A stretch of 64,000 nucleotides of DNA, taken from the NCBI RefSeq assembly GCF_024298765.1, contig NZ_CP101210.1. One strand, written 5' to 3'. Shown piece by piece: positions 13,807 to 62,965 of the stretch (positions are counted from its first letter, which is position 1; every line of letters begins with the position of its first letter). Both the position numbers and the translations under genes were made by a program. Origin of the DNA: Escherichia coli (GTDB lineage Bacteria > Pseudomonadota > Gammaproteobacteria > Enterobacterales > Enterobacteriaceae). The notes under the pieces are model-generated. The model did not search any database, had not been told where the DNA came from, and saw only the letters and a list, made by a program, of their open reading frames with translations.

Positions 13807-14538
13807 ATGAAAAAAGGGAAAGTACGTAGCGCGTTGATAGCATTAGCCGTGCTGCTGGCCGGTTGTTCCAGTAATGCGCAGTATAATAGCAGTGCATCAG
13901 GCAATGTCGGCACCGCCTGGGGTGGGGATGTGCACTCAACGGTTCAGGGCGTATCTGCTGAGCGAGCTTGGCGCGATCCGGCAGAGATGATCGTTATTAG
14001 TTATTCGACGACTGTTCCTTCGGGCTACGACCGCGTTTATAGCATTCGTATTAACGAACTTGAATATGCTATTCGCGATGGTAATTTTAATTCTCTACCT
14101 ATTACGCGGGTTTATGATTCGTCAAATAATGAACCACGCTATATTGTCCATGCCAGAGTAGGAATGAATTATCAATTATATGTCCGCAATTACAGTCGTA
14201 ACACCAACTACGAGATCGTTGCTACGGTTGATGGCCTGGATGTGCTGAACGGCAAGCAAGGTTCGCTGAATAACAACGGCTATATTGTGAATGCCGGAGA
14301 TTCGTTAGCGATTAAAGGATTCCGCAAAGATAAACATACCGAAGCGGCTTTTCAGTTCGCCAACGTTGCTGATTCCTACGCAGCCAATTCGGCGCAAGGC
14401 GATGTGCGTAATACCGGTGTAATCGGCTTTGCCGCCTTTGAATTACAAGGCCCGGCGCAAAACGCGCTGCCGCCGTGCTCTGGACAAGCCTTTCCGGCAG
14501 ATAACAATGGCTATGCGCCGCCACCGTGTCGGAAATAG
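13807..14538 (+). CDS. Putative outer-membrane lipoprotein of unknown function (243 aa); candidate accessory gene
   Basis: ORF begins MKKGKVRSALIALAVLLAGCSS: a signal peptide with lipobox LLAG|C and Ser at +2. Mature part is Asn/Ser/Tyr/Gly-rich with two C-terminal Cys. Central portion looks AT-rich. Its own SD (gagggaa) and flanking terminators. Confidence 0.7.
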   Translation: MKKGKVRSALIALAVLLAGCSSNAQYNSSASGNVGTAWGGDVHSTVQGVSAERAWRDPAEMIVISYSTTVPSGYDRVYSIRINELEYAIRDGNFNSLPITRVYDSSNNEPRYIVHARVGMNYQLYVRNYSRNTNYEIVATVDGLDVLNGKQGSLNNNGYIVNAGDSLAIKGFRKDKHTEAAFQFANVADSYAANSAQGDVRNTGVIGFAAFELQGPAQNALPPCSGQAFPADNNGYAPPPCRK

Positions 14539-18734: not shown

Positions 18735-18759
18735 GGGCCGCGAAAGCGGCCCTTTTTTT
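18735..18759 (+). terminator. Rho-independent terminator of tktA
   Basis: gggccgcgaaagcggccc followed by ttttttt; the T-run overlaps the stop codon of the convergent SPFH gene. Confidence 0.65.
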
Positions 18760-19666
18760 ACTTAGTAGAGATAAACGGAACTGTACTGCCGGGGATCATG
18801 GTATCGGGTAGCTTACCGTCCCAACGCTCAGCAGTGGTGAGGGCAACAAGTCCGGGATTATCCCGCAGAGCTTCACCGCGCAGGCGGATCGCTTCTGCTT
18901 CAGCCGCACTTTTTAAACGAATAGTTTCAGCCTCTGCCGCGCCTCTTACGCGAATAGTCTCAGCTTCTGCTTTGGCTGCCGCCAGTTTACTGTCTGCTTC
19001 AGCCTGGGCCTGAGTTACTGCTATTTGCGCCTGGATTTTCTCTGTTTCCAGATTTTGCTTACGTGTGGCAATGGCGACTTCTGCTTTCATTCGATCTTCA
19101 ATCGATTTTTCATAAGCGTCAGAAAAATCAATATTTTCAATCTGGACACCATCAATCACCACCGGGCCAACAACGGCTTTACGCATTGCATTTTGCAGAT
19201 CCTGAACCAGTTTTGTACGATCCTGTACCGCGCTGATGGCGGTATATTGGCCGAAAACGTTCTCCAGTTGAGTTGGCAGCTGGCGGACGATCAGACGCTC
19301 TTTTAAAGATTCAATGGTGTTGTAGGTTGTATAAACTGCGCCAGCTTCTGAAGGTTTAATGTGGAAGCTGACTGATACTGTCATTTGTGCCGGTTGCTGG
19401 TCGCGGCTGTAGGCCTGTAATCCCTGATAAACCACAGCCTGATTACGCGTGGAAATTTTCTCCACGCTTTCCATAAAAGGGATCTTAAAACCCAGACCCG
19501 GCTCGGCAACTTTTACGATTTTTCCGTAGCGCAGCAAAATGCCGCGTTCACCTTCATTAACGGTGTAATACGAGAGAAATGGCAGCACAACCACGGCAAG
19601 CACGCCAATGACGATAGCAATAGATTTTTGTGGGCGAAATGAGGTTATTGAAACAGGTGCTTTCAT
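18758..19666 (-). CDS. SPFH/band-7 (prohibitin/HflC-like) membrane protein with C-terminal repeat-containing coiled coil (302 aa); candidate accessory gene
   Basis: ORF 18758..19666 with SD aaggaag 7 nt upstream; N-terminal TM helix (IAIVIGVLAVVVLPF) followed by an SPFH-like region; C-terminal AEAETIRVRGA/AEAETIRLKSA/AEAEAIRLRGE repeats. Confidence 0.8.
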   Translation of the reverse strand: MKAPVSITSFRPQKSIAIVIGVLAVVVLPFLSYYTVNEGERGILLRYGKIVKVAEPGLGFKIPFMESVEKISTRNQAVVYQGLQAYSRDQQPAQMTVSVSFHIKPSEAGAVYTTYNTIESLKERLIVRQLPTQLENVFGQYTAISAVQDRTKLVQDLQNAMRKAVVGPVVIDGVQIENIDFSDAYEKSIEDRMKAEVAIATRKQNLETEKIQAQIAVTQAQAEADSKLAAAKAEAETIRVRGAAEAETIRLKSAAEAEAIRLRGEALRDNPGLVALTTAERWDGKLPDTMIPGSTVPFISTK

Positions 19667-30397: not shown

Positions 30398-31033
30398 GTG
30401 TTTTCTTATTACTTTCAAGGTCTTGCACTTGGGGCGGCTATGATCCTACCGCTCGGTCCACAAAATGCTTTTGTGATGAATCAGGGCATTCGTCGTCAGT
30501 ACCACATTATGATTGCCTTACTTTGCGCTATCAGCGATTTGGTCCTGATTTGCGCCGGGATTTTTGGTGGCAGCGCGTTATTGATGCAGTCGCCGTGGTT
30601 GCTGGCGCTGGTCACCTGGGGCGGCGTAGCCTTCTTGCTGTGGTATGGTTTTGGCGCTTTTAAAACAGCGATGAGCAGTAATATTGAGTTAGCCAGTGCC
30701 GAAGTCCTGAAGCAAGGCAGATGGAAAATTATCGCCACCATGCTGGCAGTGACCTGGCTGAATCCGCATGTTTACCTGGATACTTTTGTTGTACTGGGCA
30801 GTCTTGGCGGGCAACTTGATGTGGAACCAAAACGTTGGTTTGCGCTCGGGACAATTAGCGCCTCTTTCCTGTGGTTCTTTGGTCTGGCTATTCTCGCAGC
30901 CTGGCTGGCACCGCGCCTGCGCACGGCAAAATCACAGCGCATTATCAATCTGGTAGTGGGATGTGTTATGTGGTTTATTGCCTTGCAGCTGGCGAGAGAC
31001 GGTATTGTTCATGCACAAGCCTTGCTCAGTTAG
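30398..31033 (+). CDS. argO: Arginine exporter ArgO (LysE family, 211 aa)
   Basis: ORF 30398..31033 (GTG start); translation [23 protein letters not shown]. Confidence 0.85.
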
Positions 31034-31125
31034 GCGCTATCTGATGGAAAAATAAAACAGAGGCGCTAAGCTTGCCTCCAGAGGTCCTGAATTTTAGGCA
31101 AGTCAATTAACACGGAGAGACTAAC

Positions 31126-31866
31126 GTGAAGTTCAAAGTTATCGCCCTGGCGGCATTAATGGGTATTAGCGGGATGGCAGCGCAGGCTAACGAATTGCCG
31201 GATGGACCGCATATTGTCACCTCCGGTACGGCAAGCGTGGATGCGGTGCCAGACATTGCCACTCTTGCGATTGAAGTCAACGTGGCCGCGAAGGATGCCG
31301 CTACTGCCAAGAAACAGGCGGATGAGCGCGTCGCACAATACATTTCCTTCCTTGAACTCAATCAGATCGCGAAAAAAGATATCAGCTCAGCGAACTTACG
31401 CACCCAGCCAGATTATGATTATCAGGATGGTAAAAGTATCCTGAAAGGCTACCGTGCTGTGAGAACGGTGGAAGTCACGCTCCGTCAGTTAGACAAACTG
31501 AATTCCTTGCTGGATGGCGCGCTGAAGGCGGGTCTTAACGAAATTCGTTCTGTATCGCTGGGCGTGGCGCAGCCGGATGCCTATAAAGACAAAGCGCGTA
31601 AGGCAGCGATTGATAACGCGATTCATCAGGCGCAGGAACTGGCGAACGGCTTTCATCGTAAACTGGGGCCGGTATATAGTGTGCGCTACCATGTTTCCAA
31701 CTATCAGCCCAGCCCAATGGTGCGGATGATGAAAGCCGATGCCGCGCCGGTGTCCGCCCAGGAAACTTACGAGCAGGCCGCTATTCAGTTTGATGATCAG
31801 GTCGATGTGGTCTTCCAGTTAGAACCTGTGGATCAACAACCCGCTAAAACACCTGCAGCACAATAA
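31126..31866 (+). CDS. yggE: DUF541/SIMPL-family periplasmic protein YggE (246 aa)
   Basis: ORF 31126..31866 (GTG start); signal peptide. Confidence 0.85.
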   Translation: MKFKVIALAALMGISGMAAQANELPDGPHIVTSGTASVDAVPDIATLAIEVNVAAKDAATAKKQADERVAQYISFLELNQIAKKDISSANLRTQPDYDYQDGKSILKGYRAVRTVEVTLRQLDKLNSLLDGALKAGLNEIRSVSLGVAQPDAYKDKARKAAIDNAIHQAQELANGFHRKLGPVYSVRYHVSNYQPSPMVRMMKADAAPVSAQETYEQAAIQFDDQVDVVFQLEPVDQQPAKTPAAQ

Positions 31867-32033
31867 TATTTGTAGCCCGACGTATTCGTCGGGCTAATGC
31901 CTTTACCCGATATTGCCTCCTTTTTCTGTAATTTTCTGTAAAACCATGACGTAATCACCTATCTTTGCTCGCGGTTTCATCAAGGATAGGCTGACTGAAA
32001 CGGTTAAGCGGACAAGGATGCGGGGGAGGGGGT

Positions 32034-32930
32034 ATGGACATTTTTATTTCGAAAAAGATGCGCAATTTCATTTTATTAGCGCAAACCAATAATATTGCCC
32101 GGGCGGCAGAAAAAATCCATATGACAGCTTCGCCATTTGGTAAAAGCATTGCCGCGCTGGAAGAACAAATTGGCTATACGCTATTTACCCGCAAAGATAA
32201 TAATATCAGCCTCAATAAAGCCGGACAGGAACTGTATCAAAAACTGTTCCCGGTTTATCAACGGCTTTCTGCGATTGATAATGAAATCCATAACTCAGGG
32301 CGTCGTTCACGAGAAATTGTGATTGGCATAGATAATACTTATCCGACAATTATTTTCGATCAGTTGATTAGTCTCGGAGATAAGTATGAAGGCGTGACCG
32401 CCCAGCCAGTTGAGTTCAGCGAAAATGGCGTTATCGATAATCTTTTTGACCGTCAGTTAGATTTTATTATCTCCCCACAGCATGTATCTGCACGAGTTCA
32501 GGAACTGGAAAACCTGACTATCAGTGAACTACCGCCGCTGCGATTGGGCTTTCTCGTTTCTCGTCGTTATGAAGAGCGACAAGAGCAAGAGTTGCTTCAG
32601 GAGCTACCCTGGCTACAAATGCGCTTTCAGAACCGGGCTAACTTCGAAGCAATGATTGATGCGAATATGCGTCCTTGTGGGATCAATCCCACCATTATTT
32701 ATCGTCCCTACAGTTTTATGGCCAAAATCAGCGCCGTGGAGCGCGGACATTTTCTGACGGTGATCCCGCATTTTGCCTGGCGACTGGTGAATCCGGCAAC
32801 GCTGAAATATTTTGATGCGCCGCACAGGCCGATGTATATGCAGGAATATCTTTATTCAATCAGAAATCATCGTTATACCGCCACGATGCTTCAGCATATT
32901 GCTGAAGATCGTGACGGGACGAGTCATTAA
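32034..32930 (+). CDS. ygfI: LysR-family transcriptional regulator YgfI (298 aa)
   Basis: ORF 32034..32930; N-terminal HTH; stop codon overlaps the convergent scpC stop. Confidence 0.8.
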   Translation: MDIFISKKMRNFILLAQTNNIARAAEKIHMTASPFGKSIAALEEQIGYTLFTRKDNNISLNKAGQELYQKLFPVYQRLSAIDNEIHNSGRRSREIVIGIDNTYPTIIFDQLISLGDKYEGVTAQPVEFSENGVIDNLFDRQLDFIISPQHVSARVQELENLTISELPPLRLGFLVSRRYEERQEQELLQELPWLQMRFQNRANFEAMIDANMRPCGINPTIIYRPYSFMAKISAVERGHFLTVIPHFAWRLVNPATLKYFDAPHRPMYMQEYLYSIRNHRYTATMLQHIAEDRDGTSH

Positions 32931-34405
32931 CCCAGCATCGAGCCGGTTGCAATTAAATTACGGTGTAAGTCGAAGACGTGGCTAAGATCGTGGTGAATAT
33001 GTCCGCCGGGCGCATTTTCCAGATAGCGATGCAGATAATCCCGATACATAGGATGTGCACAATTATCAATGATAGTGCGGGCGCGTTGAAGCGGGGAAAG
33101 ACCACGCAGATCGGCGATGCCTTGTTCGGTGATGATCACTTTGACGCTGTGTTCGCTGTGATCAACATGGCTGCACATTGGCACGACGGTTGAGATCTTG
33201 CCTTCTTTAGCAATCGACGGGGCCATAAAGATCGACAGATACGCGTTGCGTTCAAAATCACCGCTGCCACCGATGCCGTTCATCAGATCGACCCCGGCTA
33301 CGTGCGTTGAGTTGGCATGCCCGTAAATATCAAACTCCAGGCCGACGTTCAGAGCGATGACGCCCAGACGACGGATGATTTCCGGGTTATTGGAAATCTC
33401 CTGCGGACGCAACACAATGCGGCTGGCAAAGTAATCCATATTGTCGTAAATCTTGCGCAGGGAATCGGCCGAGATAGTCAGGCTGGAGGCGCTGGCCCCG
33501 CTGATTTTGCCCGTTTCCAGTAAATGCACCACCGATTCCTGTAGCACTTCCGAATACATCATAAACGGAGGAATTTCCGGATTTTCCCCCAGACGCGCCA
33601 TTACCGCATTATTGATGTTGCCTACGCCACTTTGCAGCGGCAGAAATTCCGGCGGAATACGCCCATGCGCCATTTCCTGCAACAAGAACGTGACCACGTT
33701 ATCGGCAATCTGCTGGCACATGGGATTTTGCTTATCCAGCATATTACCGGCGTCAGGCAAGTTGGTTTCCACGACGGCGACAATCTTTTTCGGATCGATT
33801 TGCACATAGCGGGTACCGACGCGATCCATTGCATGGAAGATCGACACGCTATTGCGCCGCGGTGGCGCGCCAGGAATCACAATATCTGCCAGTTCTGCAA
33901 CGCGCGGATCGTGATAGTGATTGAGTTCAATGATCACTTTCTTCGCCCGCAGCAGCCAGGTCGGCGCATTACCGATCCCGCTGGTTAACCAGACTCGACC
34001 ATCCGGTGCCAGTGCCGATGCTTCAATGACGGCAACATCAATGTCGCCGAAGAAACCGTAATTGACCATTTGCGCCACTTCGCTCAAATGCAGGTCAACG
34101 AAACTCACCGCGCCCTGATTGATCTTTTTACGTAAACCGGACGATGTTTGATATGGCGCACGCCAGGAAACAGCATCGGCGTCAGAAAGTACATCGTCAG
34201 CGGCGGCGCTGATTGACGCCCCCGTCAGCAGGCGAATTTGATACGGCTTTTTGGCCTCATGCTGTTCGTTAGCTCTGCGGGCAATCGCGTTGGGTAAGGC
34301 TTTCGGCGAACCCGCTGGGGTAAAGCCGCTAAATGCCACCATGTCGTTATGCTGGATAATTTCTGCCGCTTCATCGGCGGTCATCCTTGTCCACTGAGTT
34401 TCCAT
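32927..34405 (-). CDS. scpC: Propionyl-CoA:succinate CoA-transferase ScpC (YgfH, 492 aa)
   Basis: ORF 32927..34405; last gene of the sbm operon. Confidence 0.9.
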   Translation of the reverse strand: METQWTRMTADEAAEIIQHNDMVAFSGFTPAGSPKALPNAIARRANEQHEAKKPYQIRLLTGASISAAADDVLSDADAVSWRAPYQTSSGLRKKINQGAVSFVDLHLSEVAQMVNYGFFGDIDVAVIEASALAPDGRVWLTSGIGNAPTWLLRAKKVIIELNHYHDPRVAELADIVIPGAPPRRNSVSIFHAMDRVGTRYVQIDPKKIVAVVETNLPDAGNMLDKQNPMCQQIADNVVTFLLQEMAHGRIPPEFLPLQSGVGNINNAVMARLGENPEIPPFMMYSEVLQESVVHLLETGKISGASASSLTISADSLRKIYDNMDYFASRIVLRPQEISNNPEIIRRLGVIALNVGLEFDIYGHANSTHVAGVDLMNGIGGSGDFERNAYLSIFMAPSIAKEGKISTVVPMCSHVDHSEHSVKVIITEQGIADLRGLSPLQRARTIIDNCAHPMYRDYLHRYLENAPGGHIHHDLSHVFDLHRNLIATGSMLG

Positions 34406-34428
34406 TTTAACTCCTTCGTTCGCAGGGA

Positions 34429-35214
34429 TTAATGACCAACGAAATTAGGTTTACGTTTTTCGAGGAAAGCGTTCATCCCTTCCTGGTAATCTTCGCTGTC
34501 ATAAACCGCGCGGCGCATCCCCTGAATACGTTCAAATTCATCGGAGTTCATGGTGTGCGCTTCGCCCAGTACACGCAGCTCTTCTTTGATAACGGCAATG
34601 GCTAACGGCGCTTTCTCAGAGATGTGGTGCGCCATTTGTAAGGTGAAATCTTCCAGTTCTTCCACTTCCACAACATGGTTGAGGATGCCGACAGCCAGCG
34701 CGCGCTGGGCTGTGATTGGCGAAGCGGTAAAAATCAGCTCTTTGACAATGTGGAAGCCCGCGTCGCGGGTCAGGTTGTGAATGCCGACCAGGTTATACGG
34801 GACGCCGAGGTTTACAGGTGTCATTGAGAAGGTTGAGGTACTGGCGGCGATGATCAGATCGGAACTCATGATCATTTCAAATGCGCCACCCCAGACACTA
34901 CCTTCCACCATCGAAATGATCGGTTTCGGGAATTTTTGGATCATGCGGGTGATTTGACGCAACGGATCATCATAGGAGAGCGGATCGCGACCGCCAGACG
35001 GCAGTTCGTGAATATCGTGACCTGCGGAGAAGACTTTGGAACCACTCGGCGCGCGCAAAATGATACAGCGAATTTCCGGCCGGTTGAGATCGCTTAATGC
35101 CTGCATAAGATCATCAATAAAGACTTTACTTAAGGCATTAAGTTTGCGGCCATAGTTAAACTCAATGACCGCCACTTTGTTGATAGTGACAACGTTCACA
35201 TACTGATAAGACAT
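34429..35214 (-). CDS. scpB: Methylmalonyl-CoA decarboxylase ScpB (YgfG, crotonase family, 261 aa)
   Basis: ORF 34429..35256 trimmed to MSYQYVNVVTINKVAVIEFNYGR. Confidence 0.85.
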   Translation of the reverse strand: MSYQYVNVVTINKVAVIEFNYGRKLNALSKVFIDDLMQALSDLNRPEIRCIILRAPSGSKVFSAGHDIHELPSGGRDPLSYDDPLRQITRMIQKFPKPIISMVEGSVWGGAFEMIMSSDLIIAASTSTFSMTPVNLGVPYNLVGIHNLTRDAGFHIVKELIFTASPITAQRALAVGILNHVVEVEELEDFTLQMAHHISEKAPLAIAVIKEELRVLGEAHTMNSDEFERIQGMRRAVYDSEDYQEGMNAFLEKRKPNFVGH

Positions 35215-35224
35215 AAAAATTCCT

Positions 35225-36220
35225 TTAATCAAAATATTGCGTCTGGATAAATTCACTGAGCTGCCGCAGGCCGGTGCGCGGTGAGAGCGTATTGTTTTTG
35301 ACTGCTAAAAGCGTCTGGCGGTAATAGCGATCGAAATCTTCATTCGCGAACAGGCGATTCAGTACTTCTTCTTCGGTCTGCTTACGCAGCCATTCCACCG
35401 ATTGTTGTTGCCGCACTTGTTGTAATCGACCACTGGCAGTTAGCGCGGTTTTGAAGTCGATGATGGCGTGCCAGATCTCATCGATTCCACGTTTTTCCAG
35501 TGCGCTACAAGTCAGAACCCGTGGCTGCCATTCGTCGTATTTACGTCGCAGAATATGCAGGGCACTCTCGTACATATGCCGGGCAATGGCGACATTGGTA
35601 TGGTTATCGCCATCGTCTTTGTTGATAACGATCAGATCTGCCACTTCCATCAGCCCCTTTTTAATGCCCTGCAGATCATCGCCGCCACCGGCAATTTGCA
35701 ACGAGATAAAACAGTCCACCATGCGGGCGACTTCCGTTTCTGACTGCCCGACGCCAACCGTTTCGACAATCACTACGTCATAACCCGCCGCTTCGCATAA
35801 CAGCATTAATTCCCGCGCTCGCTGACTGGCACCGCCCAGATGGCCGGAGGAGGGTACCGGGCGAATAAACGCCGCCTCGGCACGCGCCAGGTCATTCATG
35901 CGGGTTTTATCCCCGAGAATGCTACCGCCAGTGACCGGGCTGCTGGGATCGACCGCAATAACAGCAACCTTTAATCCCTCACGAATCAACAACATGCCAA
36001 AGGCTTCAAGAAAGGTACTTTTCCCCGCGCCGGGTGTGCCGGTAACGCCCAGTCGCAGGGCGTTACCACAGAACGGCATAATGGCGTCAAGCAGCTGAGT
36101 ACTTAGCGCCTGATGACGCGGGTGACGGCTTTCCACCAACGTCATGGCCTGGGCGAGCGTGGCACGCTCACCATGACGTAAGCGGCGAATACTTTCTGCC
36201 AGCGTGGCTTCATTAATCAT
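35225..36220 (-). CDS. argK: MeaB/ArgK-type G3E GTPase (YgfD, 331 aa), mutase chaperone
   Basis: ORF 35225..36220; P-loop [12 protein letters not shown]; start overlaps the scpA stop by 8 nt. Confidence 0.9.
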
Positions 36221-38357
36221 GATGCTGGCTTATCAGATTCAGTACGTCGCGCACGCTATCGAGCATAGGTGTACCTGGACCATAAATCGCCGCCACGCCG
36301 CGCTCTTGCAGGAAGGCGTAATCCTGCGGCGGAATGACGCCACCCGCGACCACGCAGATATCTTTGCGTCCCCATTTTTTCAGCGCTTCGACCAGTTCTG
36401 GGATCAGCGTTTTATGACCGGCAGCCAGTGAGGATGCGCCCACTACGTGAACGTCGTTTTCTACGGCCAGGCGGGCGATCTCTTCAGGTGTAGAGAACAT
36501 CGGGCTTAAATCTACGTCGAAACCGAGATCGGAATAGGCGCTGGCGATCACTTTCGCGCCGCGATCGTGCCCATCCTGGCCCATTTTGGCGATCAGAATG
36601 CGCGGGCGACGACCATTGTCGGCAAGGAACTGCTCCGTTTGCGCAACAATGGCATCGAACTCGGCGGCCGATTTCTCAGACTGATGATAGCTTTGCGCAA
36701 TCACGCCGGTAACACACTGGCTTGGCACCAGATAACGGTCGAAAGCGGCTTCCAGCGCATCGGAAATTTCACCCAGGGTGGCGCGAACGCGAGCAGCATT
36801 AACAGCGGCAGCCAGCAGGTTTTCGTTATGCTGTGCGGCGTGAGTCAGGGCGTTCAACGCGGCGGTTACGGCGGCATCATCACGGGTGGCGCGAATGCGT
36901 TCCAGCGAAGCAATTTGCTCGTTACGCACCATCACGTTGTCGATCTCAAGTACATCGGTTTCGTCTTCGTGATCCAGTTTGTACTTGTTGACACCAACGA
37001 TGACACGCTTGCCCTGGTCGATCAGCGACTGTTCGCGCGCTGAGGCCTCTTCGATCATTCGTTTTGGCAGACCTGCTTCGATCGCTTTCGCCATGCCACC
37101 GGCTTCGTCGATCTGTTGGATAATAGCTCTGGCTTGTTTGACGATTTGATCGGTCAGCGACTCAATGTAATAGGATCCGGCCAGTGGATCGACGGTGCGG
37201 CAGAGTTCTGATTCTTCCTGAATGATGATCTGGGTATTGCGGGCAATGCGTGCTGAGAAATCGGTAGGCAAACCAAGCGCTTCATCAAAGGCGTTGGTAT
37301 GCAGTGACTGAGTACCGCCCAGCGTTGCAGCCAGTGCTTCAATGGTGGTGCGGATAACGTTGTTATACGGATCCTGTTCAGTCAGGCTCCAGCCTGAGGT
37401 CTGGCAGTGGGTACGCAGCGCCAGTGATTTCGGATCCTGTGCGCCAAATCCACTGACCGCTTCGCTCCATAAATAACGTGCCGCACGCAACATGGCGACG
37501 TTCATAAACAGATCCATGCCAATGCCGAAGAAGAACGACAGGCGAGGAGCGAAGTCATCAATTTTCAGCCCGGCGGAGATTGCTGCTTTGATGTACTCAA
37601 TCCCATCAGCGAGCGTAAATGCTACCTGCTGCACGCAGTTGGCACCCGCTTCACCCATATGGTAACCGCTGATACTGATGGTATTAAATCGCGGCATGTT
37701 GCCGGAACACCAGGCGATGATGTCGGCGATAATACGCATTGACGGTTTTGGCGGGTAAATATAGGTGTTGCGGCAAAGATACTCTTTGAGGATATCGTTT
37801 TGAATGGTGCCGGTCAGTTTATCGGGTGTAACGCCTTGCTCTTCTGCGGCGACAATATAAAACGCCAGTACTGGTAGCACTGCGCCATTCATGGTCATCG
37901 AAACCGACATTTTATCCAGCGGGATCTGGTCGAACAGAACTTTCATATCTTCCACGGTGTCGATAGCGACGCCCGCTTTGCCGACGTCGCCCGCCACGCG
38001 TGGGTTATCGGAGTCGTAGCCACGGTGGGTGGCAAGGTCAAACGCAACGGAAAGACCTTTTTGCCCGGCGGCCAGGTTACGGCGATAAAAAGCGTTGGAC
38101 TCTTTTGCTGTTGAAAAACCAGCATACTGACGGATGGTCCACGGTTGGGCGGTATACATAGTGGCACGCGGGCCACGAACGTAGGGCGGCAAACCAGGAA
38201 GGGTACCTGTCACCTCCAGATTATCGAGATCGGCTTCGGTATACAGCGGCTTGATGGCGATCCCTTCCGCGGTTTGCTGAACCAGCGAGTCGACAGTTTT
38301 CTCCCGACGGCTCAATTCCTTGTTGGCAAGCTGTTGCCACTCCTGCACCTTAGACAT
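36213..38357 (-). CDS. scpA: B12-dependent methylmalonyl-CoA mutase ScpA (Sbm, 714 aa)
   Basis: ORF 36213..38378 trimmed to [20 protein letters not shown]. Confidence 0.9.
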
Positions 38358-38560
38358 TATTTGCTCCGTAAAACGCAATCAAAATGAGGGTATTTGCGCT
38401 TACGGTGAGCTTTTTACGTGGGTTTGTCGCCAGCAAAAAAAATGCATTCAGACGTCGTTTTTTGCCGCCTGAGATTTGTCTATTTTGTGATGTGATTCAA
38501 GGAATACAAAAAGAAGTGAGGATAACGCCTGATATGTGCTATCAGGCATTATTTGATGGA

Positions 38561-39454
38561 TTAATCCTGACGAAGGACTTTGTGACCATAATCAAGCAAC
38601 GCATCAGTGACTTTACGCATCATGCGGCTTTCAGGAGCAAAGCGGTGCCAGTAGAGCATCCGTCGTTGAAATAGCCCAGGCGTTAAGTCAATCAGTTCAC
38701 CGCTGGCCAGCTCTTTCTCGATTTGCAGGTGCGGGATCATACAGCAGGTGGTGCCCTGGCGAGCAAGTTGCACGAACGCTTCTGAAGAATTAACGATATG
38801 GCAGGGTACGCTGCCAGGAGGCAGATCGAAGTTTTGCTGCAAAAAGGCCTGGTGCATATCGTCAAGATGGTCAAAGGCGACCACAGGTGCTTTCAATAAT
38901 GCCGAACGCGTTACGCCGTTAGGGAAATATTTTTCGGCAAACGGTTTTGAGCTGACGAACAGATAGTCGAGCGCACCGAGCTTATCGACAAGACAGCTCG
39001 GCAGCGCCTGATGTTGAATACTCACCGCGCCGACCACTTCGCCGCGGCGCAGACGTTCCTGAGTGCGGGTTTCATCTTCTACCTGCAAGTTGAGGCGGAT
39101 AGGCGAATCAGCTAACACAGGAGCCAGCGCCGGAAGCAACCACGTCGCCAGACTGTCAGCGTTGACCGCCAGTGAAAGCAGCAGCGGAGTTGAACCGGTT
39201 TGTTCATCGCCCAGCCACTCTTCTTCCAGTAACTCCACCTGGCGTAGCAGTGCCAGCAGTTTTTGCCCTTGTTCTGTCGGGCGCGGTGGTACGGTACGCA
39301 CCAACAGCGGCTGCCCGAACATATTTTCCAGTTGCTTAATGCGCTGTGAGACGGCTGATTGTGTAATGCACAGCTTTTGTGCCGCGCGCTCAAATCCTCG
39401 TTCACGTATCACCGCATCCAGTGCCTGTAATGTTCTGTAGTCCGGGCGTTTCAT
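38561..39454 (-). CDS. argP: LysR-family regulator ArgP (IciA, 297 aa)
   Basis: ORF 38561..39664 trimmed to [28 protein letters not shown]. Confidence 0.85.
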
Positions 39455-39835
39455 TGCTGTTGTCTGCTCCTGGTAAATGCTTTTTCCTGCACTATGACAC
39501 AATTTTGTGTCAGGTTGCATATACCGAAGTCGTTGGCGGGTAACATTTGTATCAGTGGTTAACGCGCAGCTTAAAAGATCAGGGATTTGCGCTAATGCAT
39601 TTCGCTCAGCGAGTTCGCGCCCTGGTTGTGTTGAATGGCGTGGCGTTATTGCCTCTGTTCGCATCGTGGAGCGGCATACCCAGACCGTTGTATGCTTTAT
39701 TTGCGGGGCGAAAGGGGATGCCCGCCATTGCGCGATATTTTATGGATGAGTTAACCACCCGGCTTGCCAACGGGGTCTGAATCGCTTTTTTTGTATATAA
39801 TGCGTGTGAAATTTCATACCACAGGCGAAACGATC

Positions 39836-40495
39836 ATGACGCAGGATGAATTGAAAAAAGCAGTAGGATGGGCGGCACTTCAGTATGTTCAGCCCGGCAC
39901 CATTGTTGGTGTAGGTACAGGTTCCACCGCCGCACACTTTATTGACGCGCTCGGCACGATGAAAGGCCAGATTGAAGGGGCCGTTTCCAGTTCAGATGCT
40001 TCCACTGAAAAACTGAAAAGCCTCGGCATTCACGTTTTTGATCTCAACGAAGTCGACAGCCTTGGCATCTACGTTGATGGCGCAGATGAAATCAACGGCC
40101 ACATGCAGATGATCAAAGGCGGCGGCGCGGCGCTGACCCGTGAAAAAATCATTGCCTCGGTTGCGGAAAAATTTATCTGTATTGCAGACGCATCCAAGCA
40201 GGTTGATATTCTGGGCAAATTCCCGCTGCCAGTAGAAGTTATCCCGATGGCACGTAGTGCAGTGGCGCGCCAGCTGGTGAAACTGGGCGGTCGTCCGGAA
40301 TACCGCCAGGGCGTGGTGACCGATAACGGCAACGTGATCCTCGACGTCCACGGCATGGAAATCCTTGACCCGATAGCGATGGAAAACGCCATAAATGCGA
40401 TTCCTGGCGTGGTGACTGTTGGCTTGTTTGCTAACCGTGGCGCGGACGTTGCGCTGATTGGCACACCTGACGGTGTCAAAACAATTGTGAAATGA
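39836..40495 (+). CDS. rpiA: Ribose-5-phosphate isomerase A RpiA (219 aa)
   Basis: ORF 39764..40495 trimmed to [18 protein letters not shown]. Confidence 0.9.
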
Positions 40496-40750
40496 TCTGA
40501 CGGGGGAACCTCCCCCGTTAAAAAAATTCTCTTCATTAAATTTGGTGACATGTGTCACGTTTTTACCTGGCTATTGTCGATTGCTCTAAATAAACCCTCT
40601 AAACCAGCATATTCATCCAAGAAATACCTTTGCGTGATATTTCCTCAACATCGCGACGCAAACGTTCATATTGCCGCAATATTATTTTTTGATATGTTGA
40701 AAGGCGGATGCAAATCCGCACACAACATTTCAAAAGACAGGATTGGGTAA

Positions 40751-42169: not shown

Positions 42170-42310
42170 GGTAAAGCCCTCACCGAAGCGAGGGCTTGAA
42201 GGAGAAGGGTTATGATGCGACTTGTCATCATACTGATTGTACTGTTACTCATAAGTTTCCCAGCTTATTAACAGTCAGTCTCAGGGGAGGAGTCATCCTC
42301 CCTTACCCTT
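42170..42310 (-). ncRNA. sibC: SibC antisense sRNA (antitoxin of ibsC); ends approximate
   Basis: Minus-strand sigma70-like promoter (TTGACA-17 nt-TAATTT) at 42318..42346 reads antisense across ibsC; minus-strand hairpin at about 42160..42190 could be its terminator. Boundaries inferred, not measured. Confidence 0.5.
42212..42271 (+). CDS. ibsC: Type I toxin IbsC-like small hydrophobic peptide (19 aa)
   Basis: ggagaagggtt SD then atgatgcgacttgtcatcatactgattgtactgttactcataagtttcccagcttattaa, translating MMRLVIILIVLLLISFPAY; serA-ygfA intergenic position matches the known ibsC/sibC locus. Confidence 0.6.
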   Translation: MMRLVIILIVLLLISFPAY

Positions 42311-42317
42311 ACTCACT

Positions 42318-42346
42318 AAATTAGGTTAAAGAATCAACGATGTCAA
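42318..42346 (-). promoter_or_regulatory. Putative sigma70 promoter of sibC
   Basis: Minus-strand ttgaca (plus 42341..42346), 17-nt spacer, taattt (plus 42318..42323). Confidence 0.4.
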
Positions 42347-42993: not shown

Positions 42994-43178
42994 GGAAATC
43001 TCCGAGATGCCGCCGCAGGCTGTAACCCTTGAACCCTTGGTTCAAGGTGAATGTGTCGTCGCAGTTTTAAGGCTTCTCGGACGGACCGAGCATGCTCACC
43101 AACCGCGGAGCGCCACATTCTTGTGGTATGAAATATCGGCTCAGGGGACTGGCCCGCTTGCGAACATCTCAGAGAAAT
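42994..43178 (-). ncRNA. ssrS: 6S RNA (SsrS), RNA polymerase-binding regulatory RNA
   Basis: Minus strand reads AUUUCUCUGAGAUGUUCGCAAGCGGGCCAGUCCCCUGAGCCGAUAUUUCAUACCACAAGAAUGUGGCGCUCCGCGG..., matching recalled E. coli 6S RNA; immediately upstream of ygfA. Confidence 0.85.
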
Positions 43179-61866: not shown

Positions 61867-62965
61867 ATGTTTGAAATTAATCCGGTAAATAATCGCATTC
61901 AGGACCTCACGGAACGCTCCGACGTTCTTAGGGGGTATCTTTGACTACGACGCCAAGAAAGAGCGTCTGGAAGAAGTAAACGCCGAGCTGGAACAGCCGG
62001 ATGTCTGGAACGAACCCGAACGCGCACAGGCGCTGGGTAAAGAGCGTTCCTCCCTCGAAGCCGTTGTCGACACCCTCGACCAAATGAAACAGGGGCTGGA
62101 AGATGTTTCTGGTCTGCTGGAACTGGCTGTAGAAGCTGACGACGAAGAAACCTTTAACGAAGCCGTTGCTGAACTCGACGCTCTGGAAGAAAAACTGGCG
62201 CAGCTTGAGTTCCGCCGTATGTTCTCTGGCGAATATGACAGCGCCGACTGCTACCTCGATATTCAGGCGGGGTCTGGCGGTACGGAAGCACAGGACTGGG
62301 CGAGCATGCTTGAGCGTATGTATCTGCGCTGGGCAGAATCGCGTGGTTTCAAAACTGAAATCATCGAAGAGTCGGAAGGTGAAGTGGCGGGTATTAAATC
62401 CGTAACGATCAAAATCTCCGGCGATTACGCTTATGGCTGGCTGCGTACAGAAACCGGCGTTCACCGCCTGGTGCGTAAGAGCCCGTTTGACTCCGGCGGT
62501 CGTCGCCACACGTCGTTCAGCTCCGCGTTTGTTTACCCGGAAGTTGATGATGATATCGATATCGAAATCAATCCGGCGGATCTGCGCATCGACGTTTATC
62601 GCGCATCTGGCGCGGGCGGTCAGCACGTTAACCGTACCGAATCTGCGGTGCGTATTACTCACATCCCAACCGGGATCGTGACCCAATGCCAGAACGACCG
62701 TTCCCAGCACAAGAACAAAGACCAGGCCATGAAGCAGATGAAAGCGAAGCTTTATGAACTGGAGATGCAGAAGAAAAATGCCGAGAAACAGGCGATGGAA
62801 GATAATAAATCCGACATCGGCTGGGGCAGCCAGATTCGTTCTTATGTCCTTGATGACTCCCGCATTAAAGATCTGCGTACCGGGGTAGAAACCCGCAACA
62901 CGCAGGCCGTGCTGGACGGCAGCCTGGATCAATTTATCGAAGCAAGTTTGAAAGCAGGGTTATGA
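61867..62965 (+). CDS. prfB: Peptide chain release factor 2 PrfB; requires programmed +1 frameshift, join(61867..61941, 61943..62965)
   Basis: Frame 0 reads [25 protein letters not shown] then an in-frame TGA at 61942..61944 within cttagggggtatctttgac; the +1 frame continues [12 protein letters not shown]... to 62965, and contains the GGQ motif. ORF track only reports the 3' part from 62084. Confidence 0.9.

Follow-up and report, generated by a model that had tools for sequence, protein, structure and literature searches.

The four-gene "sleeping beauty mutase" (sbm) operon of E. coli is a textbook system: two of its proteins have solved structures and metabolic engineers use it widely to obtain propionate, 1-propanol and odd-chain products. 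It was reportedly characterised biochemically by Haller et al. in 2000 (Biochemistry 39:4622). In propionate catabolism, the human, Methylobacterium MeaB and Propionibacterium MutAB systems convert methylmalonyl-CoA into succinyl-CoA, receiving their input from a carboxylase and an epimerase. A G-protein chaperone accompanies the mutase in human MUT/MMAA, in the Methylobacterium and Propionibacterium (1REQ) systems and in the locus described here. Propionibacterium MutAB is an alpha-beta heterodimer, while the present locus has a single mutase gene. Unlike in these other systems, this gene is grouped with genes for a decarboxylase and a CoA-transferase, and the predicted net direction is for that reason opposite to theirs.

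The window (the whole stretch of 64 kb that was analysed) contains what we identify, with a probability of about 0.93, as the intact chromosomal E. coli sbm operon scpA-argK-scpB-scpC, at positions 32927-38357 of the minus strand. No evidence contradicting this identification was found, and the operon is an ordinary one that has already been described. Gene identity, intactness, packing, synteny and purifying selection are all shown by this analysis.

Gene organization

The locus consists of the following features:

36213-38357, minus strand: scpA (sbm), adenosylcobalamin-dependent methylmalonyl-CoA mutase, 714 aa
35225-36220, minus strand: argK (ygfD/meaB), G3E-family GTPase chaperone of the mutase, 331 aa
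34429-35214, minus strand: scpB (ygfG), methylmalonyl-CoA decarboxylase with a crotonase fold, 261 aa
32927-34405, minus strand: scpC (ygfH), propionyl-CoA:succinate CoA-transferase, 492 aa
32034-32930, plus strand: ygfI (srsR), convergent LysR-family regulator, regarded as a neighbour of the system
38358-38560, minus strand: argP-scpA spacer, 203 bp, presumed leader and promoter region

The initial annotation described four intact, tightly packed genes, with argK overlapping scpA by 8 nt, scpB and argK 10 nt apart and a convergent ygfI overlapping the scpC stop. Coordinates, spacings and full-length frames all agree with this description. Mutase, MeaB-type GTPase, decarboxylase and CoA-transferase genes follow each other in this order on a single strand with minimal spacing, and the four ORFs are uninterrupted, each running from an ATG to a TAA without an internal stop (ORF list and translation check). 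When the spacings were recomputed, the scpA/argK overlap was 8 nt (ATGATTAA) and the argK-scpB gap 10 nt; the scpB-scpC gap, a value absent from the initial annotation, is 23 nt. The overlap of ygfI with scpC is 4 nt long (TTAA at 32927-32930), such that the stop codons of both genes interlock. According to the RefSeq annotations of strain 104 and K-12 BW25113, the locus sits between argP (upstream) and ygfI/srsR (convergent, downstream).

Such tight junctions, an overlap of 8 nt followed by gaps of 10 and 23 nt, suggest co-transcription of the four genes as a single predicted transcript. The argK start lies within the final codons of scpA and argK has no Shine-Dalgarno sequence, which suggests translational coupling of these two genes. 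It is very improbable that the ORFs are separately transcribed adjacent genes that form no operon. Such an arrangement could draw on minus-strand hairpins within the coding regions that were scored as terminator-like (such as those at 35193-35168 and 37882-37866), but the 15 sites do not exceed the expectation from shuffled sequence (9.8, sd 3.0) and all lie within ORFs, and internal terminators splitting the operon were rejected on these grounds. Spacings of -8, 10 and 23 nt also leave no room for internal promoters, the argK start in the scpA stop region implies coupling, and both PMC3850637 and PMC10832534 treat the scp genes as a four-gene operon.

One further structure was identified past the last gene of this putative transcript:

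32878-32917, minus strand: stem-loop that begins 10 nt past the scpC stop, in the last 15 srsR codons

It is made up of nested inverted repeats (32878-32887/32908-32917 and 32889-32896/32900-32907) and dominates the local fold of 32700-32930 on the minus strand. It has no neighbouring U-tract and was not among the hits of the terminator scan. This stem-loop is a weak candidate for the 3' end or a stabiliser of the scp transcript.

Identity of the proteins

Each of the four products scores above its curated NCBIfam cut-off (487-1251 bits), and the assignment of the four genes is far beyond chance. The domain search proposed in the initial annotation, carried out with Pfam and NCBIfam, gives each product a named function.

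ScpA has the TIM-barrel domain, C-terminal B12-binding domain, histidine ligand and equivalog score of a methylmalonyl-CoA mutase. It matches PF01642 (781 bits) and the B12-binding domain PF02310 in Pfam, and the equivalog model NF006944 (1251 bits, cut-off 876). Residues 595-600 (DGHDRG) match the DxHxxG cobalt-ligand motif. In a PDB sequence match, 702 residues align with human MUT (8GJU/2XIJ; E=2e-278), and comparison with the human MUT and MMAA structures (2XIJ, 8GJU, 2WWW) places ScpA end-to-end with MUT, with the cobalamin-binding loop common to both.

ArgK has the MeaB domain, the Walker A motif (GxxGxGK[ST]) and the NKxD motif of MeaB/MMAA-type G3E GTPases, with the P-loop GTPGAGKS at residue 61 and NKDD at residue 200. 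It scores 420 bits with PF03308 (MeaB; Pfam) and 494 bits with the equivalog model NF006958 (cut-off 329). ArgK is ~99% identical to PDB 2P67, an E. coli "LAO/AO transport system kinase", and is similar to Methylobacterium MeaB (2QM7, E=3e-90) and human MMAA (E=7e-76).

ScpB is identical to PDB 1EF8 across residues 1-261, making it equivalent to the characterised YgfG; it matches PF00378 (ECH_1; Pfam) and the equivalog model NF008506 (487 bits, cut-off 257). ScpC matches PF02550 and PF13336 in Pfam, and its best and most specific model is that of the YgfH subfamily (TIGR03458; 754 bits, cut-off 658.7). Its SEVLQ (residue 285) and GIGGSGDF (residue 377) motifs are both conserved. The protein aligns over its full length with 2NVV and with AarC structures (4EU3 and others), and also exceeds the cut-off of NF053853, a succinyl-CoA:acetate CoA-transferase model (602 bits, cut-off 500). 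By these model scores, ScpC is a CoA-transferase of the YgfH subfamily.

The product of the convergent gene, YgfI, matches the SrsR equivalog model NF047842 (635 bits, cut-off 425). Regulation of the scp genes by SrsR was considered and set aside: scpA, scpC, sbm, argK and ygfH are nowhere mentioned in the SrsR target paper (PMC9181523), and the adjacency is treated as coincidence or antisense overlap only.

Comparison with K-12 and other E. coli genomes

The window is E. coli chromosome. Over 7.7 kb it matches annotated E. coli chromosomes with 100% identity, among them that of strain 104, in which RefSeq places srsR, scpC, scpB, meaB, scpA and argP at exactly matching positions; the whole 64 kb is collinear with strain 104, with 3 mismatches. 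The K-12 sbm operon, scpA(sbm)-argK(ygfD)-scpB(ygfG)-scpC(ygfH) (b2917-b2920), has the same genes, order, strand, junction geometry and flanks, and its four products have the same lengths (714, 331, 261 and 492 aa).

The two alleles differ by 88 nucleotides in the four genes (~1.6%), of which 76 are synonymous and 12 non-synonymous, giving a pooled pN/pS of ~0.05 for the present lineage versus K-12. This substitution pattern shows purifying selection on the operon. The 12 amino acid differences comprise five in ScpA (N3K, H27Q, V537A, S565A and E665K), four in ArgK (Q16H, Y50F, T54A and H289R) and three in ScpC (N11D, T39N and V277E), none of which falls in a motif checked here; the ScpB and SrsR proteins match those of K-12 without substitution. 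Frameshifts and premature stops, named in the initial annotation as what would refute its reading, are absent from the residue-by-residue comparison with K-12. The argP-scpA spacer has two differences from K-12 in 203 bp. Only 79 of 5426 matching records have the present allele at 99% identity or more.

Intactness of this operon is not universal in E. coli. The full locus is found in 4275 of 5426 complete genomes, while 1114 (~21%) carry one identical ~4.3-kb deletion reaching from scpC into scpA. The window carries the undeleted form; relative to it, the deleted allele lacks 33081 to ~37338 (scpB and argK entirely, the greater part of scpC, and two-thirds of scpA at its 3' end) and has an additional 54-bp deletion at ~37378-37431. 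RefSeq annotates the scp remnants as pseudogenes. Examples include isolate NQ3 (NZ_CP024720.1) and an O127:H6 strain; the flanking genes and the argP-scpA spacer are as in the window. As the junction is the same in all 1114 genomes, a single old deletion event is indicated rather than repeated loss. A literature search for the phylogroup distribution of scpABC retrieved only unrelated "Scp" proteins.

Transcription signals upstream of scpA

The spacer contains a GGAG Shine-Dalgarno sequence at 38364-38367. The initial annotation had proposed looking for a promoter upstream of scpA in 38358-38560. A consensus scan of the minus strand of this region at a threshold of 9 matches out of 12 gave no sigma-70-like site, and a permissive scan (at least 8 of 12, spacer of 15-19) found nothing credible. 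The only candidates from the permissive scan overlap the scpA start codon, and no promoter is named here. There was no match to a cobalamin riboswitch at the Rfam gathering threshold across the window, nor at E-values up to 10 within 38200-38800. No other Rfam family scored usefully in the leader either; the best match, PYLIS_3 (20 bits versus a gathering score of 38), is considered irrelevant.

A stem-loop is present between the operon and argP:

38522-38552, minus strand: stem-loop after argP, with 13-nt arms (92% complementary) and a 5-nt loop, 9 nt past the argP stop

It folds with an energy of -18.6 kcal/mol (z-score -5.8 relative to shuffled sequence). With a U-run that starts only ~12 nt past the stem, it does not have the form of a canonical intrinsic terminator. 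This structure is probably the argP terminator, and would then be a partial insulator between argP and scpA.

The operon is probably expressed at a low level, given the lack of any recognisable sigma-70 promoter or riboswitch upstream and the hairpin between it and argP. The missing promoter and riboswitch matches fit the published picture of a silent or weak promoter: PMC3850637, citing Haller et al. 2000, describes the sbm genes as hardly expressed, with a weak or inactive promoter. PMC5459495 cites the operon in its reference list only, and a search for a link between RpoS and the scp operon returned nothing relevant. The one mildly odd observation is a pN/pS of ~0.05 together with a "silent" promoter.

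Proposed pathway

The characterised K-12 counterparts, either identical or no more than 0.7-1.2% different, supply a mechanism for the products. ScpC would transfer CoA from propionyl-CoA to succinate, so that succinyl-CoA is formed and propionate set free. ScpA, with adenosylcobalamin held by the histidine of DGHDRG, would convert succinyl-CoA into methylmalonyl-CoA, and ArgK/MeaB, a mutase-binding GTPase, would guard or load the cofactor. Decarboxylation of methylmalonyl-CoA by ScpB would yield propionyl-CoA and close the cycle, for a predicted net conversion of succinate into propionate and CO2. We infer flux through this pathway in vivo; it would depend on B12 import and, in the view of one paper, on an epimerase gene located elsewhere.

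The "complete pathway" label for the operon is debatable. All four genes named in the initial annotation are present, but the claim that they form a complete succinate-to-propionate route on their own is disputed. According to PMC5512728, the product of ScpA is the (R)-enantiomer, whereas such decarboxylases act on the (S)-form, and the operon, lacking an epimerase, "encodes an incomplete pathway". In PMC10832534, ScpA and ScpB are enough to make propionyl-CoA from succinyl-CoA in mineral medium, in a host said to have no epimerase. A methylmalonyl-CoA epimerase is absent both from the operon and from the window's 69 annotated features.

Role of the operon

It is possible, if rather doubtful, that the enzymes mainly serve another flux, such as disposal of methylmalonyl-CoA or propionyl-CoA produced by the catabolism of amino acids or odd-chain substrates, in which ScpC would be a general succinyl-CoA:acyl-CoA transferase. 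This would suit the finding that the operon boosts amino-acid degradation to propionate in rich medium and that glucose gave none without an added epimerase (PMC5512728), as well as the score of ScpC above the NF053853 cut-off and its full-length alignment with the acetate-specific AarC. However, the most specific model for ScpC remains that of the YgfH subfamily, ScpA and ScpB sufficed for propionyl-CoA synthesis in PMC10832534, and no sequence feature of the window discriminates between flux directions.

It is unlikely that the operon, intact in sequence, is a cryptic relic with no useful natural transcription that is heading for loss as in about one fifth of genomes. The lack of a sigma-70-like promoter in the upstream spacer, a stable hairpin past argP that would limit read-through, the description of the genes as "hardly expressed" in PMC3850637 and the deletion shared by 1114 of 5426 genomes are all in keeping with a relic. 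Neutral decay, however, predicts something other than a pooled pN/pS of ~0.05 versus K-12 and 5.4 kb free of stops and frameshifts, and the single shared junction speaks for one old event rather than for repeated loss. Less likely still is a real, condition-specific role in the gut, in which cells scavenging B12 would convert succinate into propionate. The 203-bp spacer would then hold a non-sigma-70 promoter or the site of action of an unknown activator, the transcript would run antisense into the srsR 3' end and couple both, and the genomes with the deletion (~21%) would be a lineage that gave up this niche. The deletion in 1114 of 5426 genomes weighs against physiological importance of the operon.

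For the reading preferred here, that of an intact sbm operon, the value lies in annotation: this strain holds the full, undamaged operon, unlike about one fifth of sequenced E. coli. It thus has the genetic capacity to make propionyl-CoA from succinyl-CoA in a B12-dependent way, provided that the operon is expressed and there is a supply of cobalamin.

Operon structure and intactness

ORFs were listed for 31000-40500 and trimmed to their annotated starts, after which the translations were checked. The four long minus-strand ORFs described in the initial annotation were all recovered.

Genes of the scp (sbm) operon and the convergent regulator gene. All four scp-operon reading frames run from ATG to TAA with no stop codon in between.
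36213-38357, minus: scpA, 714 aa; Pfam MM_CoA_mutase and B12-binding; NCBIfam NF006944 (score 1251, cut-off 876)
35225-36220, minus: argK, 331 aa; Pfam MeaB; NCBIfam NF006958 (494, cut-off 329)
34429-35214, minus: scpB, 261 aa; Pfam ECH_1; NCBIfam NF008506 (487, cut-off 257)
32927-34405, minus: scpC, 492 aa; Pfam AcetylCoA_hydro N-terminal and C-terminal domains; TIGR03458, YgfH subfamily (754, cut-off 658.7)
32034-32930, plus: ygfI (srsR), converging on scpC

Neither frameshifts nor premature stops were found and the gene lengths equal those of K-12 BW25113, bearing out the claim that the genes are intact. The tight packing described earlier was also recovered: the scpA-argK overlap is 8 nt, with the argK ATG inside ...CAT CAT GAT TAA of scpA, 10 nt separate argK from scpB, and ygfI does overlap scpC, the 4 bases TTAA at 32927-32930 being common to both. 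Because both genes use this TTAA, their stop codons interlock. The scpB-scpC gap is 23 nt. Shine-Dalgarno sequences precede scpA (GGAG), scpB (AGGA) and scpC (GGAG), while none was found before argK; together with the tight packing, this implies that the four genes would be carried on a single transcript, with scpA and argK translationally coupled.

Products and pathway

ScpA can be aligned with human methylmalonyl-CoA mutase over 702 residues (E-value: 2e-278), including the cobalamin loop. ArgK is ~99% identical to 2P67, ScpB is identical in sequence to 1EF8, and the whole of ScpC can be matched to 2NVV and the AarC structures. A motif check identified DGHDRG at residues 595-600 of ScpA, GTPGAGKS and NKDD in ArgK, His66 and Tyr140 in ScpB, and SEVLQ and GIGGSGDF in ScpC, residues expected to have the functional roles described in structural papers.

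To our knowledge, E. coli cannot synthesize cobalamin de novo, so the mutase would rely on imported corrinoid. Going by the K-12 enzymes characterized by Haller et al. (2000), as summarized in PMC3850637, ScpC would transfer CoA from propionyl-CoA to succinate, ScpA with adenosylcobalamin would convert succinyl-CoA into methylmalonyl-CoA, ArgK/MeaB would act as the G-protein chaperone of the mutase, and ScpB would decarboxylate methylmalonyl-CoA to propionyl-CoA. The initial annotation called this system complete. That is correct for the operon; the pathway may be incomplete. No epimerase is present among the annotated features anywhere in the 64-kb window. ScpA and ScpB are described as sufficient in PMC10832534, where the host is said to lack an epimerase.

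Flanking regions

Two predicted structures flank the operon:
38522-38552: stem-loop of 13 bp, 9 nt past the argP stop (-18.6 kcal/mol, z-score -5.8)
32878-32917: strong nested inverted repeat just past the convergent scpC stop, inside the final 15 srsR codons

A consensus promoter scan of 38358-38560 on the minus strand gave no site, and the sole matches from a looser scan of this interval overlap the scpA start codon. No Rfam family, in particular no cobalamin riboswitch, was matched upstream of scpA. The upstream stem-loop is probably the argP terminator, though its U-run is displaced. The downstream repeat has no U-tract, so we can only guess that it may be a 3'-end structure common to the two converging transcripts. 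The scp genes are not mentioned in a paper on SrsR targets.

Genomic context

Many E. coli chromosomes match the 7.7 kb from 32000 to 39700 at 100% identity, and the whole window is collinear with 1782200-1846199 of strain 104 (NZ_CP029164.1), with three mismatches. The RefSeq gene order in strain 104 is srsR, scpC, scpB, meaB, scpA, argP, with coordinates corresponding exactly to the window genes. The locus is an already known, well-characterized operon on an ordinary E. coli chromosome, which the initial annotation had interpreted rightly.

Other features of the window
13807-14538, plus: 243-aa ORF in the ~1-kb speA-speB spacer; annotation: hypothetical or membrane protein; no Pfam match
18758-19666, minus: SPFH/Band 7 gene ("prohibitin family"), an insertion separating tkt from cmtB
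39595-39780, plus: small ORF in the argP-rpiA spacer, annotated merely as hypothetical
42196-42346, minus: Sib antitoxin RNA between serA and fau (Rfam RF00113, 136 bits)
42212-42271, plus: annotated ibsC type I toxin gene, opposite the Sib RNA
42995-43178, minus: 6S RNA gene ssrS (Rfam RF00013, 140 bits)
61867-62965, plus: prfB with programmed +1 frameshift, for which the identical strain 104 record gives a joined CDS

A 1.3-kb probe over the 243-aa ORF was at least 80% covered in 3542 of 5426 genomes; elsewhere speA and speB are nearly adjacent. The corresponding figure for a 1.55-kb probe over the SPFH/Band 7 gene was just 1816 of the 5426 complete E. coli genomes, with identities from 100% to ~92%. 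Compared with K-12, the 39595-39780 ORF lacks 45 bp and has a further 1-bp indel; its K-12 counterpart is a gene fragment annotated as "LysR substrate-binding domain-containing protein". Position 42996, at the ssrS 3' end, is one of the three differences from strain 104.

Distribution and conservation

Of the 5426 complete E. coli genomes, all but one match the scp locus (5425), with at least 80% coverage in just 4275. Genomes below this level mostly show a ~44% match, with remnants annotated as pseudogenes. By alignment, the deleted allele lacks window positions 33081 to ~37338 (~4.3 kb), joining the scpC 3' end to the 5' third of scpA; in isolate NQ3 (NZ_CP024720.1), L003:2567-2605 corresponds to window 33080/37339 and 37378-37431. 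The junction lies at an imperfect 15-nt repeat (TCAATGATAGTGCGG / TCAATGGTGGTGCGG), and a second deletion of 54 bp (window 37378-37431) is flanked by GGATCCTGT. A 141-bp junction probe was at least 80% covered in 1114 of the 5426 genomes (~21%), including an O127:H6 strain. One identical junction in so many genomes points to a single ancestral event, and we infer that the lineage carrying it is phylogroup B2. NQ3 also has an internal stop in srsR, beside its deleted scp locus.

The window carries the undeleted, majority form in an uncommon allele, only 79 records being at least 99% identical to it. Relative to BW25113, the four genes show 88 nucleotide differences (76 synonymous, 12 non-synonymous) and 12 amino acid differences, none of them in ScpB. 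With a pooled pN/pS of ~0.05 (Nei-Gojobori; four genes against K-12), the scp genes look, from sequence comparison, to have been kept by selection.
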